64,000 nt of DNA from positions 46,562,001 to 46,626,000 of the forward strand of contig OZ024745.1 in assembly GCA_964016885.1 (NCBI GenBank), read 5' to 3'. Below are positions 20,457 through 41,524 of the stretch, one piece after another. The position numbers and the translations under genes were made by a program. Below the pieces are notes generated by a model. The model was not told the origin of the DNA. It saw only the letters and a list, made by a program, of their open reading frames with translations, and made no database searches. Source of the DNA: Eledone cirrhosa (taxonomy: Eukaryota). How positions within the stretch are numbered: position 1 is the first letter of the stretch; each line of letters starts with the position of its first letter.

Positions 20457-20461
<5 letters not shown>

Positions 20462-20567
20462 AACCAGTAAGACCCCGACAGCTGAGCTCAAGCCGTTTCG
20501 ACGGCTAATTCAGAATTAGCCGTCGAAACGGCTTGAGCTCAGCTGTCGGGGTCTTACTGGTTCCTAT
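20457..20567. repeat. Perfect palindrome, 55-bp arms, 1-nt centre; right arm carries the GAAA-stemIII-GUC half of a hammerhead
   Basis: Arms are exact reverse complements around A20512. GAAA at 20525-28; stem ACGGCT/AGCTGT; GTC at 20545-47. Confidence 0.9.
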
Positions 20568-20643
20568 TACCCACTCTACTACCCCAAGTATTGAGTACTT
20601 TGGTGCGTTATGGTCCACCTGGTTCCTTACCACATTTCCTTCG

Positions 20644-20700
<57 letters not shown>

Positions 20701-20943: not shown

Positions 20944-22074
20944 ATCATCATCATCATCATCATCAACGTTTAACGTCCGTGCTCCATGCTTGCATGGGTT
21001 TGGACGGGGGTTTTCCCACTTGAGGCAAGAGTGGTTGTCTTGCTCGCATAGGACTGTCTGGCGGGTTTTCTACAGCTGGATGCCCTTCCTAACACCAACC
21101 ACATTTACAGTGTGGGGCTGGGAGGTTTTTACCATGTTGCCTACACGGCCACATTACAGCGTGGACTGTCTGGCAGGTTTTCTACAGCTGGATGCCCTTC
21201 CTGACACCAACCACATTTACAGTGTGGGGCTGGGAGGTTTTTACCATGTTGCCTACACGGCCACATTACAGCGTGGACTGTGTGTTTTTTGTCGTGACAC
21301 CTACACGATCTCATTTGTTTCGGCCTGGATGTTGTGGCACCAACATAACTTTACATTGAAGGGGCGGTGTGGATGGGGTGGGTGGTGGTGGTGGGACGGG
21401 GGTGTATTTTGTTAGAGATGCCTACTGGCTGTAGTAGGTTTTACTTTGTATTTAGGTAAGGCGGGTCTTCTCTATTACTGAGTACCGCCAAAGGTCTCGG
21501 TCCAGTGACATTGTCTTGGAGAGGTGTAAGTGTGTGAGGTCGGAATTTATCAGCTCGTCCCAGATTTTTCTGGGTCTGCCTACTCCGTAGCTACTGTCTA
21601 TCTTTATTGCCCTGCACTTTGTTATACAGTTGTCGTCTTTCATGCGCATCACGTGACTATACCAACGTAGCCTTCTCTCGAGTAAACAACATCTCATCCC
21701 TCTTATTTCTAATTTTTTCCTTAGTTCGCTTATGCTTTGCCGTTCACGTATGTTACTATTACACATCCAGCGGAGCATGCAAGCTTCGTTCCTCTCCAGT
21801 CTGCGTATATCCTCTGCACGCAATGTCCAGGTCTTACTGCCATGTAACATTGCTGTTCGTATGCAGGCATCATACAACCTGCCTTTCATTTTTAGGGAGA
21901 ACCCTTTAGCGGCTAATAGTGGTATAAGCTCTCTGAACTTTTTCCAACCAGTTCTGACTCTAGCTACTGTACTTTCAGAGCACCCTCCCCCACTGCTGAT
22001 TTTGTCGTCCAGGTAACGGAAGCTGTCCACTATTTCTATAGAACCCTCTGCGCAATTGAAAGAGCTAGTATTTT
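20944..22074 (-). mobile_element. RTE LINE 3' portion, left member of an inverted pair, with a 112-bp tandem duplication in the 3'UTR
   Basis: ORF 21452-22030 (SFRYL..., ERRLRWYSHVMR, GVGRPRK); GGACTG anchors at 21051, 21163 and 21275. Confidence 0.92.
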
Positions 22075-22163: not shown

Positions 22164-23387
22164 AGTTCTAGTTTGTAAGAAAGAAAATAAGGCGGCAGCC
22201 CCTTCCGGGAAGTGGCCATGCTCAGTGTGTAGGAAAGGCGTAGGTAGAAACTCCATTTTGTGTCCCAAATGCAAAGTATGGGTGCATAAAAGATGTAGTG
22301 GGATCACAGGTAAGCTAACTAAGAACATAGATTTTACATGTGGCCGGTGCTCTGGTGCAATAAGTAGCAGCAAGTTCCCACAAAATACTAGCTCTTTCAA
22401 CTGCGCAGAGTGTCCTATAGAAATAGTGGACAGCTTCCGTTACCTGGGTGACAAAATCAGCAGTGGGGGAGGGTGCTCTGAAAGTACAGTAGCTAGAGTC
22501 AGAACTGGATGGAAAAAGTTCAGAGAGCTTATACCACTATTAGCCGCTAAAGGGTTCTCCCTAAAAATGAAAGGCAAGTTGTATGATGCCTGCATACGAA
22601 CAGCAATGTTACATGGCAGTAAGACCTGGACATTGTGTGCAGAGGATATACGCAGACTAGAGAGGAACGAAGCTTGCATGCTCCGCTGGATGTGTAATAG
22701 AAACATACGTGAACGGCAAAGCATAAACGAACTAAGGAAAAAATTAGAAATAAGAGGGATCAGATGTTGTTTACTCGAGAGAAGGCTACGTTGGTATGGT
22801 CACGTGATGCGCATGAAAGACGATAGCTGCATAACAAAGTGCAGGGCAATAAAGATAGACGGTAGCCACGGAGTAGGCAGACCCAGAAAAACCTGGGACG
22901 AGCTGATAAATTCCGACCTCACACACTTACACCTCTCCAAGACAATGTCACTGGACCGAGACCTTTGGCAGTACTCAGTAATAGAGAAGACCCGCCTTAC
23001 CTAAATACAAAGTAAAACCTACTACAGTCAATAGGCATCTCTAACAAAATACACCCCCGTCCCACCACCCCCACCCCATCCACACCGCCCCTTTCAATGT
23101 AAAGTTATGTTGGTGCCACAACATCCAGGCCGAAACAAATGAGATCGTGTAGGTGTCGCGACAAAAAAACACACAGTCCACGCTGTAATGTGGCCGTGTA
23201 GGTAACACGGTAAAAACCTCCCAGTCCACACTGTAAACGTGGTTGGTGTTAGGAAGGGCATCCAGCCGTAGAAAACCCTTCAGACAGTCCTATACGAGCA
23301 AGACAACCAATCTTGCCTCAAGTGGAAAAATTCCCGTCCAAACCCATGCTAGCGTGGAAGATGGACATTAAACGATGATGATGATGA

Positions 23388-23390
<3 letters not shown>
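22162..23390 (+). mobile_element. RTE LINE 3' portion, right member, including C4HC3 PHD-like finger; (TGA)n tail
   Basis: ORF 22225-23004: CSVC..CPKC.VWVHKRC..CGRC, then SFRYLGD, LHGSKTW, RRLRWYGHVMR, GRPRKTW. Confidence 0.93.
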
Positions 23391-23424
<34 letters not shown>

Positions 23425-23470
23425 CATATATATATATAACCATATATATATATATATATATACACATATC

Positions 23471-23536
<66 letters not shown>

Positions 23537-23660
23537 CATATGTAGGAGGTGAGTTTTATTGTAGTACAATAAAGCAATGCAGATATCGGATAAGAAGCAC
23601 TCTACAGTTTGTAGGACTGGAGTATACATAATATATAAGATCAAAAGATGGTTAAAAGAG

Positions 23661-23742
23661 TTCCATGTATTTTATTATGCGCATTTCAAAAACAAATATC
23701 ATCATGCAATAACATTTGTGTTTTCATCAGATAAAATAGGAA
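23661..23742 (-). ncRNA. Type I hammerhead ribozyme motif (left arm; fully palindromic stem III ATGCGCAT)
   Basis: Minus strand reads TTCC-TATTTTAT-CTGATGA-[36-nt stem II hairpin]-GAAA-TGCGCA-TA^-ATAAAATA-CAT-GGAA. Confidence 0.85.
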
Positions 23743-23860
23743 GACATGATATGAAGGTTAAAAAACACTTGTGAATAGTGCAGTTTTAAATCAACATATC
23801 ATGATATGTTGATTTAAAACTGCACTATTCACAAGTGTTTTTTAACCTTCATATCATGTC

Positions 23861-23942
23861 TTCCTATTTTATCTGATGAAAACACAAATGTTATTGCATG
23901 ATGATATTTGTTTTTGAAATGTGCATAATAAAATACATGGAA
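23861..23942 (+). ncRNA. Type I hammerhead ribozyme motif (right arm)
   Basis: Stem I TATTTTAT (23865-72)/ATAAAATA (23928-35), extended by TTCC/GGAA past a CAT bulge; CTGATGA 23873-79; stem II 23880-915; GAAA 23916-19; stem III ATGTGCAT; predicted cleavage after A23927. Confidence 0.85.
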
Positions 23943-23983
23943 CTCTTTTAACCATCTTTTGATCTTATATATTAGATATATAC

Positions 23984-24044
<61 letters not shown>

Positions 24045-24052
24045 CATATATA

Positions 24053-24093
<41 letters not shown>

Positions 24094-24110
24094 ATATACA
24101 TACATATATA

Positions 24111-24172
<62 letters not shown>

Positions 24173-24195
24173 CCTATATATATATTTATATATAT

Positions 24196-24226
<31 letters not shown>

Positions 24227-24241
24227 CATACATATATATAC

Positions 24242-24274
<33 letters not shown>

Positions 24275-24287
24275 CATATATATATAT

Positions 24288-38290: not shown

Positions 38291-38797
38291 TTAACCACTC
38301 AACCATAAAATGAAACACATTGTCAGGTTAGCAAGCAGATACAAAGAAATAGAATTATCCTTTCTTAGGTGTTTCAACATAAGTTATATCAAATGTTTAA
38401 TTAAAGGCCGTATTGTCAGTAGCCCCCTCCCTTAACTCTTAACATCCTTTAATGATTTAATCAGAAAATATCTAAAAATGGGTTTGTTAATTCAAATGGT
38501 TAGAATTTCTTTACTATTGGACAGATCATTGTAAATATTTGCCACTGTAGAATAAGGACTTTAATGTTTCATGTGATACAGTCATAGAGCAATCTTATAC
38601 TATTCAAGTATGTCTTGCTAGTGCAGTTTCATGTTTTTTTTTTGTTTTGTTTTTTATCCATTTCCTTTTTATTCGATGTTGTAAAATAAAATTACAGACA
38701 ATAAATCAATTTACAGCTGTATAAATAACATTACAAATATTAATGGAAATATGAAAGAAAAAGAGAAAAAAAGGATAAAAACAAAACCAAGCAACAT

Positions 38798-38895
38798 TCA
38801 TTTATGGCATTTATAGTCCTTTCTCCTACTTTCCTATACAGTCAGATCTGACTGTATAGGAAAGTAGGAGAAAGGACTATAAATGCCATAAATGA
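38798..38895. repeat. Perfect spacerless 98-bp palindrome
   Basis: 49-bp arms centred on AGA|TCT (38846/38847). Confidence 0.95.
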
Positions 38896-41524
38896 GAGGA
38901 AAAGGCAGGAAAAAGCATGGACTATGAGGCTACAGAAGAAAGGGAGGATGAAGGGAAGAGGGTGATAGGCTCTATGCTTGGGGTTGGGTGGTGTTTAGGT
39001 TGCACCCCATGGACAAAATTGTAAGGCATTTTTGTGGACAATAGCCAGCAACAGCTATTGCAACAGCTACCCCACCTCACGGGGTTCCTTCCTCAGATGG
39101 ACTGCTAACGATCTGATTTTATGGCAGATGCCTGAGGTCTGGATGGCGACTGGGTATAGGACATTATAAGTTAACCTCTCTATCATTGTGCCAAGTAATT
39201 ACAAACAAATTTAAATAATACTCTTAAAATATTTTCACAGTCACAGCCTTTGTCACTTACATAAGACTACATTTCTAGCAGGGTTAAAAAAATGAAGTCC
39301 CACTCCAACTTCAGAGAGGATTATTAGAGAGTATTAATAAGTATGTCTTGCTGGAAAACATCTGCTTTCAGCTGTTAACCCTTTTGTTATATTTCTAATG
39401 AAATACACAAATCTTGTGTTTCAATTAATTTTGAAAATACTGAAGAATTTGGAAGAATTTAAGAACATAACTTAACTTTTTCATTATTAAGTTTATGTTT
39501 GGAACATTACTTAATAAAAATAGCTCTTAACATGTATACTCATGAATAAGCTGTTCTGAATATAAGCTGACGACCCCCCCCCCCACACACACACACAAAC
39601 ACATATTGTATGCCTGAGAAATGGGTAAATCCTAAACTGACATTGACTTTGCAAAACAATTAGAAATTTCACATGATAGGTTGCATTATATATTTTACAT
39701 GGTGAATCTCTTACTACTTATCAAATTCATTCACAAGCGATATTGAACAGACATGTTGCAATAGAAAACAATATATCTACCCTTGTTCTACTAACTATGA
39801 AGTTAAAGGTCTTTTTAGAGAATACACTGATCTAACAAGTAATGTTGTGTATCATCAGCTTGCAGTTCAAACTGAAGCTTTATAGAGCAAGGATAACATT
39901 TATAGAATTTTACTGAATTAATTTATATGTTCGTATCCTAGTTTTTGAAATAGGTAGACTGTATCCCTCAATGTTCTAAGAGTCAACTAAAAGGGTTGGC
40001 ATGAGGAAAGGTATCCAGCTGTAAAACATTATCTCAAAACATCATATCCAGCCTATGCTAAATTGGAAAAGTGAACATAAAAACAATGATGATGAATATA
40101 TTTCTATAGCAAGAGGGGGAGAAAACCTGTGTGCCAATGCTGGTATGCAAAAACATCTTAACATATTGGAGATATAATTCTTTCAGAGATTTTACTAAAT
40201 ATGTAATTAAAAATTGTTATTAACTTAATTTTTTAGCTGTTGTTGCAGGATTGGGCGGGCTCGGTGATACAGTTCTTTAAAAAAACACTTTGTCAAAGCA
40301 GCAATATGAGTACTACTTTCATCTTTTGAGTTTATTAGTAGGGTTTCTTGCAGAGAGATTGGAAACAATTTTGTCCATAGATAAAGGTAGAACAAAAAAA
40401 GTACATAGTGGTTAGTTGAGCAGGTATACAACAAGTGTTTTAATGTCACTTCCCTTGCTAAGACAGAGGTTTGCCTTGCCTTGCAAGTTCCACAACAAGC
40501 TTCACCATTTTGCCTCATAATCTACATCCTCTTTCATCAATACTTTAGCTTTCATTACCTCATCATTTTTAGCCATGTCTTTCTTTGTCTTACCCTTCCA
40601 CTCCTTCATCCCACATTCATTTCCCTCCCTCCTTTCATCCAGTCAATTTTATCCTTTCTGAACACATAACCCAAACATCTCATTTCATTTCTCTTCACAA
40701 CATCTATCATTGGTTCTATTCTTATCCTTTGAAATTCATTGTTTATCTTCCTCTCCATGAGAAATACTCTGCTCATCCACTGAATCATTCTCATTTTCAG
40801 TATTTCCAGCCTTAGTTCAAATCCCGCAGAGGTTAGCTTTGATTTTCATCCTTATGGGATTAATAAAATACAATACCAGTAATGAACTGGGTTGATTAAA
40901 TGGAATTTCCCCTCCCCTTCAAATTGCTTGCCTTGTGCCTAAAGTAGAAGGAATTATTTCCAGCCTTCTCTGTTGTTCCATGTTCATTTCCATGAACAGA
41001 TATGTGAGGAAATGTAATAGGGTTGGTGATGGAATTAGCAATATAAGTCAATTTAATGATGGATTGAACAGTTTTAGCCAACTTAATGATTTTTCTATCA
41101 TATTCTTCTCATAGGTTATATATGGCAAAGAGATCAGGCAGAGACATTACACTAGTTACTGCTATGGGAACCCACACACGATAGAAAAACAAGAGGCCAG
41201 CTTCATGATACATTTCTGGAAAGAATGAACTCGCAGAAGCCATGCTGGATAGGGATAAGTGGAGAAGTATAATTATCAATGTTGTACAAGGAAACTCGAC
41301 ATGATGATGCTCATCATACTGGTTTTGTTATCTCATAATAATAATCTCCTTGTAATCATAATCACTACCACCATTGGAAAATATATCAATAGTGTCTAGA
41401 CAATGAAAGGTTAAGTATGCATTCAATTGTTTATATATTGGAGATTTTATTTTCATTTTTATCCATTCAATGTTTGAATTTAATGTGCCACAGATTCCAT
41501 GTGCCATAGAAGCAATGTGCCACA

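Follow-up and report, generated by a model that had tools for sequence, protein, structure and literature searches.

Head-to-head pseudo-LTR palindromes of a Penelope-like element in Eledone cirrhosa and their possible formation by twin priming

A palindrome with a hammerhead motif in each arm, found in a window of 64,000 nucleotides on contig C5 of the 3.0-Gb Eledone cirrhosa genome, is not a singular designed RNA. As judged from sequence comparison, it belongs to a set of about 1,700 stereotyped products of insertion by a protein-coding parent family, and each arm is a pseudo-LTR (pLTR) of a high-copy Penelope-like element (PLE). The explanation that we consider probable is twin priming, in which a head-to-head pLTR pair would arise in (TA)n when both cut strands prime at two sites on uncleaved RNA and the products are joined at the likely transcription start. 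Head-to-head pLTRs, junction palindromes, one-sided tails, (TA)n targets and opposite-strand hammerhead pairs have already been published, while fixed-end pLTR-only palindromes with a strict long+short rule were not found in a literature search confined to sources other than subscription journals, Repbase and some supplements.

The palindrome and its hammerhead motifs

Positions along the arms are given as q, the distance along an arm outward from the centre, so that the plus arm lies at window position 23801+q and the minus arm at 23802-q. The arms pair without a spacer about 23801/23802 over 173 bp, as the initial annotation had claimed, with a single mismatch (G23681/T23922), and pairing is first broken at q174; a repeat search returned the same arms as 179 nt at 98%. 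The further claim that the arms are fused at this point holds for the pairing, which runs through the centre, but the central CATG is non-parental and the true arms begin at q3 (Table 1). Compared with the 5' pLTR of L067, a full-length copy of the parent, the long arm is 97% identical over 260 nt. Its extension with AATAAA is present on the minus arm only, just as had been described; the parent sequence continues beyond this tail to the ORF start at about q345, and a tail at one end is a described PLE feature (PMC8557442, available part). A read-through transcript of the locus is predicted to form a 171-bp hairpin (-269 kcal/mol) that would bury both ribozymes, in agreement with the earlier suggestion that a ribozyme and its antisense in one transcript would compete with a dsRNA hairpin.

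Table 1. Features of the palindrome and its flanks, in window coordinates
Feature	Position	Strand	Remark
(TA)n target microsatellite, left side	23390..23540		period-2 tandem array; nearly every fold-back locus with (TA)-type flanks
Long arm: PLE pLTR q3-q261	23541..23799	-	ends at distal 3' end point; match to L067
Tail q174-q261, one arm only	23541..23628	-	AATAAA at 23555-23560
Type I hammerhead motif, long arm	23668..23738	-	stem III ATGCGCAT; predicted cut after 23676
Non-parental CATG junction joining two q3 ends	23800..23803		parent with TTYTC upstream of q3
Short arm: pLTR q3-q173	23804..23974	+	ends in TA-like stretch merging with target
Type I hammerhead motif, short arm	23865..23935	+	stem III ATGTGCAT; predicted cut after A23927
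(TA)n target microsatellite, right side	23975..24287		tandem array

Other inverted structures occur in the same window. A 914-nt, 96% head-to-head pair of LINE-like RT 3' ends, which we take to be RTE-like, lies at 21163-22074 and 22382-23290 with (TA)n between and adjoins the palindrome, and a perfect spacerless palindrome with 52-bp arms stands outside (TA)n at about 38795-38898.

Each arm reads in the order TATTTTAT, CTGATGA, a 36-nt stem-II region, GAAA, an 8-nt stem III, A17 and ATAAAATA. Stem III is the palindromic ATGCGCAT on the minus arm and the near-palindromic ATGTGCAT on the plus arm; because most copies have ATGCGCAT, ATGTGCAT is likely its CpG decay, and q121 is C in 201 and T in 4 of 205 arms. 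With a type I descriptor run on both strands of the 64-kb window, the two arms were the only matches, and a similar descriptor gave 314 matches in 667,735 nt of loci against none in three shuffles. In the 205 arms, which were taken from loci not chosen by ribozyme, the core (CUGANGA / GAAA / UH) is 97-100% invariant except N7, and the initial annotation of a hammerhead motif in each arm can stand. All eight polymorphic pairs of stems I-II in these arms stay paired through one-sided changes (A-U/G-U, U-G/C-G), with no two-sided compensatory change among the eight. Other repeat families in the loci have the same core with different stems. The invariant core, the kept stems, these other families and the 314 versus 0 descriptor matches together indicate that the motif exceeds chance. 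The proposed TTCC/GGAA extension of stem I was confirmed only in part, its outer two pairs forming in only 21% and 68% of the 205 arms.

A model search recovered no hammerhead family: the Rfam matches (66 at E<=1, and 13 at E<=10 in another run) were low-scoring and of miRNA/snoRNA type, all under gathering scores. In predicted folding, single arms did not exceed shuffles in stability (z -0.33 to -0.46), nor did stem III form. When two copies are folded together in prediction, their stem III palindromes pair across the strands, in line with the idea that a palindromic stem III is fit for dimer action, and the predicted cuts, after A23927 and at its mirror 23676 on the minus strand, agree in position with those first proposed. 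As one part of the explanation that we favour as a whole, the hammerhead would have come along as a passenger from the parent, in which it is conserved and has a predicted dimer action.

The dual min-HHRs of Schistosoma (Cervera and De la Pena 2014, PMC4209133) are alike in their opposite strands, palindromic stem III and long stem II; in the available part of that paper, the pairs consist of two type I hammerheads 100-700 bp apart and are ascribed to truncated PLEs. Whereas G10.1-C11.1 is highly conserved there, this pair is absent as the norm from the 205 arms analysed here, where stem II is closed by A-U in 188 and by G-U in 16; a further difference is that the parent and the joining rule have been worked out in the present case. 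At least a dozen further hammerhead-motif variants were seen in the loci analysed (L013, L015, L020, L008, L116, L107, L173, L095, L076, L177 and others), several of which have stem I in common with the palindrome's family and a different stem II, and the genome holds many such families.

The parent Penelope-like element

The arm is a high-copy repeat, with 11,147 exact matches in the genome to q3-24 and 7,417 to q123-155, and a parent PLE of about 3.6 kb is present in the same genome. Copies with upstream body led to its ORF and then to the near-full-length copies L067-L070, in which the pLTR flanks an ORF with RT and a GIY-YIG-type nuclease. L067 runs from an inverted piece through the 5' pLTR and an ORF from near q345 to a 3' pLTR about 3.6 kb on, and the full-length copy L069 begins exactly at q3. 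The element has features of an EN+ PLE, namely a single ORF with RT and, at the C terminus, a nuclease of GIY-YIG type (YFGST-type), broken in all four near-full-length copies, and pLTRs in partial tandem or inverted arrangement with a tail at one end (L067 and the long+short rule described below). The parent protein carries the motifs RWI, DKT, YRDD, CxCx5C, YFGST, CxxC..E and CxH, and it has 10 protein homologues at E<=7e-37. A search of a protein cluster atlas returned eukaryotic clusters, with RVT_1 on 16-20% of the members of lower-ranked ones; Pfam (two ORF pieces) and PDB (one piece) gave no match. The initial annotation had proposed a PLE origin with inverted pLTRs and had called for a search for genome-wide copies and a parental ORF: the origin is supported by the pLTR identity of the arms and the RT/GIY-YIG-type ORF, the inversion by the head-to-head arms and the inverted piece of L067, and the search yielded the approximately 1,700 palindromes and L067-L070.

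By motifs and by-eye likeness to published proteins, the parent matches the Hydra clade. In the available part of PMC8557442, this clade is defined by RWK, DKT, a CxCx5C linker, and CxxC and CxH around E and N; L068 has DKT, CNCPIKNKC, CNLCLNE and CLH, and the place of RWK is taken by RWI in the parent and by RWR in the homologue P0002. The (TA)n target and a canonical hammerhead are present as well, and the ORF resembles, by eye, the Hydra proteins in the supplement of the same paper. Hydra-clade PLEs (Craig et al. 2021, PMC8557442) are thus alike in RT plus C-terminal nuclease, DKT, CxCx5C, CxxC, CxH, pLTR hammerhead and (TA)n, but, as far as that source describes them, they differ in RWK and in a unit generally <3 kb against about 3.6 kb here; the tail is 82-88 nt here against the 30-40 bp described for PLEs, and the hammerhead is unlike any in its table. 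The same source includes Penelope-13_HM, which has a 5'-truncated inverted copy as well as one hammerhead per strand. We rejected Neptune/Nematis for the parent on the grounds that the linker is CxCx5C, not CX2-5CxxC, and inspection of the nuclease by eye showed no CCHH. Between the RT and nuclease parts of the ORF lies an Asn-rich stretch (L067:5349-5981, L031:5409-6689) like the N-rich inserts described for A. vaga PLEs, and a second, divergent PLE-type ORF (CNC..CP linker, YIG motif) lies at L031:1-2240, just upstream of a parent-family copy.

A stereotyped class with a long and a short arm

A genome-wide search for a pattern of two q3 ends with 0-8 letters between them gave 1,688 forward and 1,696 reverse matches, with none in the control; as most loci match on both strands, the same fold-back point occurs at about 1,700 loci. 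Nearly all fold-back loci have (TA)n on both flanks, and in raw RAD-seq reads of two other samples laid on L067, (TA)n follows both 3' end points, which fall at q~173-179 and q~259-264. From the first 100 listed of the 7,417 matches to an internal 33-mer, these 100 all on contig C1, 99 arms were sampled, of which 55 end short (q169-185), 40 long (q256-266), 2 in the ORF and 2 between. In the 52 regions of the first listed junctions together with the window, 48 of 53 loci combine one long and one short arm and 5 are incomplete, without a long-long or short-short locus; of 21 further loci with the CATG junction, 18 are long+short, 1 is long-long (L255) and 2 are incomplete. Taken together, the 74 loci, which like the sampled loci in general come for the most part from the initial 120 Mb of a single contig, comprise 66 long+short, 1 long-long, 0 short-short and 7 incomplete cases, the tail of the long arm being 82-88 nt. 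Independent pairing would make about half of the loci long+short, and the probability of 48/48 with independent ends is 1e-15. Polyadenylation at q261 is not supported as the source of the long end: parental TTA up to q264 is part of many ends, and the insertions lack poly(A). The sampled loci contained no retrozyme-like same-strand short tandem; their short copies are inverted pairs or solo arms, and the direct pairs seen are about 3.6 kb apart, around the ORF.

At the 5' side, 25 of the 99 arms start at q2-3, 37 are spread over q8-122 and 31 read upstream, where positions beyond about q-35 are unreliable because the alignment stops at a poly-C tract. Starts at q3 occur also when the arm is joined to an unrelated partner position or straight to (TA)n, and 4,672 of 11,147 arms read through q3. 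In the RAD-seq reads of the two other samples, joints between opposite strands fall at exactly q3 and share 0-1 letters (77, 89 and 98 reads); as these come from only 1-3 start points, they are probably single loci, and the exact q3-q3 join is not among the read joints listed. No boundary comparable to q3 was found at the ribozyme cut in genome-wide exact-match counts (7,865 for q127-155 and 7,417 for q123-155); dropping q123-126 gains only 6% more matches, and truncation at the cut was rejected accordingly.

We regard q3 as the likely transcription start, that is, the capped RNA start, from its sequence setting and junctions; a search for the element among RNA runs listed none that contains it. 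Its context TCATAT resembles what we take to be the initiator consensus. Among the 23 junctions with added letters, 19 have a single C/G, or C first after a cDNA end. An extra C after a cDNA end is expected from cap copying (PMC3287187), and Penelope of D. virilis has an internal promoter with a start inside the pLTR (PMC2377424), both according to the available parts of these papers. The extra C has other sources, too: the parental base before q3 is C, and a weak predicted cDNA hairpin (-3.8 kcal/mol) would template C/CAT/CATG. In addition, the parent has a CATATG palindrome at q2-7, which could favour the commonest junction without an RNA end. The genome-wide count of G-preceded arms (2,111/11,147) was rejected as proof of a cap G, being confounded by partner microhomology; some G-preceded junctions are such microhomology, and G is the last inserted base in 10 of 24 only.

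A second fold-back in (TA)n lies at 20457-20645 of the window, its short arm measuring 56 nt and its long arm 134 nt (about 78 nt of tail). In read-through copies of its family (L260, L133, L068), a complete type I hammerhead, cut site GUC, can be made out by eye; the short palindromic elements of this family begin inside hammerhead loop II with a 5' boundary spread over about 12 nt, and of its 14 head-to-head pairs, 9 could be classified, all of them as long+short. No ORF was linked to this family in three short upstream stretches.

How the palindromes may be formed

Each palindrome was likely made anew at insertion and not copied from a master mini-element, as the two arms at each locus are of one haplotype, copies of one haplotype differ in their junction letters, and fold-back and ORF-side arms intermix on a tree. 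Arm divergence is 1.6% within and 7.0% between loci (49 loci). The junctions in 52 regions overlap at ATAT in 23 cases and at AT in 6, add one C/G in 9 and one A/T in 1, and add several letters, C first, in 10 (one nested and ambiguous), the remaining 3 being of other kinds. These make six junction classes, and the CATG junction, seen at 55 loci, occurs in at least 5 haplotypes among 24 examined. A tree built from 111 fold-back arms and 67 read-through arms, with 58 other q3-start arms left out, has 39 label changes, at least 18 of them forced by strong branches. A master palindrome is made unlikely by this haplotype sharing, the varied junctions and the tree mixing; short transcripts from pLTR-only sources may exist. 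The arms are head-to-head, without a boundary at the cleavage site and probably not derived from a master mini-element, and we do not retain the label 'retrozyme-like'. Animal non-LTR retrozymes (PMC7229834; bioRxiv 10.64898/2026.07.22.740005) are alike in being short, non-coding and related to PLE pLTRs, with a type I hammerhead; in the available parts of these sources, however, they are same-strand tandem repeats with a hammerhead in each unit, processed by their own ribozymes to give circular RNA, whereas here the pairs are inverted and their ends unrelated to the cleavage site.

Under twin priming, the parent's GIY-YIG nuclease would cut both strands of (TA)n, one 3'-OH would start synthesis at the distal site and its counterpart at the proximal, TA-like one, and priming on the 5' pLTR of the transcript would give strong-stop-like cDNAs of at most 259 nt. 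Both cDNAs would run off at q3, the capped RNA start, and their ends would anneal via ATAT or a few added bases. In L1 twin priming, reportedly described by Ostertag and Kazazian, the RNA is primed by two 3' ends of the target, and the outcome is an inversion joined by microhomology. The likeness to L1 lies in two-end priming, inversion and the microhomology joint, but L1 segments do not overlap, while here both cDNAs cover q3-q173, so that the RNA would have been copied twice or two RNAs used. An Anolis PLE in vitro cuts and extends both strands from two internal start sites on uncleaved RNA, and both strands use both start sites alike (PMC11167929, available part); given an enzyme without strand preference, the long+short pairing needs a further step, and one true long-long locus (L255) counts against a strict rule. 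The arms could also have become identical by gene conversion at a later stage, or because only a single source was active in any one period. More tentatively, in what may be called overlapping twin priming, the subunits of a PLE dimer might start at two sites of one uncleaved RNA, one per strand, and so fix the tail to one end; the approximately 1,700 short palindromes would then be joined strong-stop cDNAs that map the capped start, and some lineages may spread by themselves from an internal promoter, rebuilding the 170-bp hairpin.

A single cDNA (or antisense RNA) that folds back, copies itself and joins the other target end at the TA-like site close to q175 is, in our judgement, an unlikely origin. 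Its antisense-RNA version was proposed by Arkhipova et al. 2013 and is the published reading of palindromic PLE junctions (PMC3846280, available part). Such self-priming accounts for the identical arms and the long+short pairing, CATG is the next templated 4-mer, and the q3-to-q52 join expected from the predicted cDNA hairpin is present at 48 loci; this join is, however, about 35 times rarer than q3-q3 (48 versus approximately 1,700), and q3-q3 offers no loop to fold on. Self-priming also leaves the q3 ends joined straight to (TA)n unexplained. In L031, L067 and L069, each arm has sequence absent from the other (tail versus body), so neither is a copy of the other, a configuration that self-priming cannot yield; by this comparison, both arms of these loci are RNA-templated.

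We likewise doubt that the short palindromes form a self-propagating non-autonomous element, SINE- or retrozyme-like, with an internal promoter at q3 and reinserted by the parent's protein, the palindrome being rebuilt each time. The internal pLTR promoter known in D. virilis Penelope (PMC2377424, available part) would permit this, and the long arm has both start sites and AATAAA. Tree labels are more clustered than in shuffles (39 changes against a mean of 51.9), partly since sister arms group, and one clade is rich in fold-back arms (37 versus 7 read-through), with fold-back-only subclades of 8-10 arms. Against this, all seven of the commonest haplotypes are found in both read-through and fold-back arms, and the nearest read-through arm (median 1.3%) is as close as the nearest other fold-back arm; the read-through sample is small (67) and biased to ORF-query loci, which makes the test weak either way. 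Moreover, the long ends with parental TTA (q262-264) require RNA into the ORF leader, and junctions are not inherited.

That q3 is instead a polymerase stop at the base of a q3-q57 hairpin, aided by the CATATG palindrome, with twin priming otherwise unchanged, seems improbable. An RNA hairpin of q3-q57 is predicted (-8.3 kcal/mol), the 23 of 52 junctions that overlap at ATAT do so within the palindrome, and many arms do read through q3 (4,672/11,147), but so weak a structure is predicted, and it should halt the polymerase on its 3' side, close to q57, instead of at its 5' base; q3 ends join without homology too, and full-length L069 starts at q3. Finally, an assembly fold-back artefact, the risk named in the initial annotation, is hardly credible: perfect palindromes between microsatellites are hard to assemble and the exact q3-q3 join is missing from the read joints listed, but the arms are asymmetric with an internal mismatch and non-parental junction letters, about 1,700 loci have the same biology-linked boundaries, and q3 inversion joints occur in raw reads.

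The head-to-head inverted pLTRs of Adineta vaga and D. virilis Penelope (PMC3846280; PMC2377424) are alike in an inverted 5'-truncated copy at the 5' end, a junction palindrome and a tail at one end; as far as these sources describe it, the inverted copy there is variably truncated and flanks the body, in contrast to the approximately 1,700 pLTR-only pairs with a fixed 5' end, and the one-sided tail is optional there but near strict here (66/67 complete loci). The way in which the inverted pLTRs and one-sided tail of PLEs arise has been named as open (PMC8557442), and the steps after priming were left unvalidated (PMC11167929), in the available parts of these papers. Taken singly, the locus with its two-ribozyme palindrome is nothing unusual among the products of a known class, and it is the class itself that makes this PLE step testable. 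The family offers thousands of short natural products in which both ends and the junction can be read, and its rules (one long and one short arm, the same source, a fixed 5' end and an uncleaved template) are open to in vitro testing. Wherever they are transcribed, these near-perfect inverted repeats of 170 bp, about 1,700 in number, would supply much dsRNA, and, if twin priming is true, the palindromes would be a natural record of how PLEs build inverted ends.
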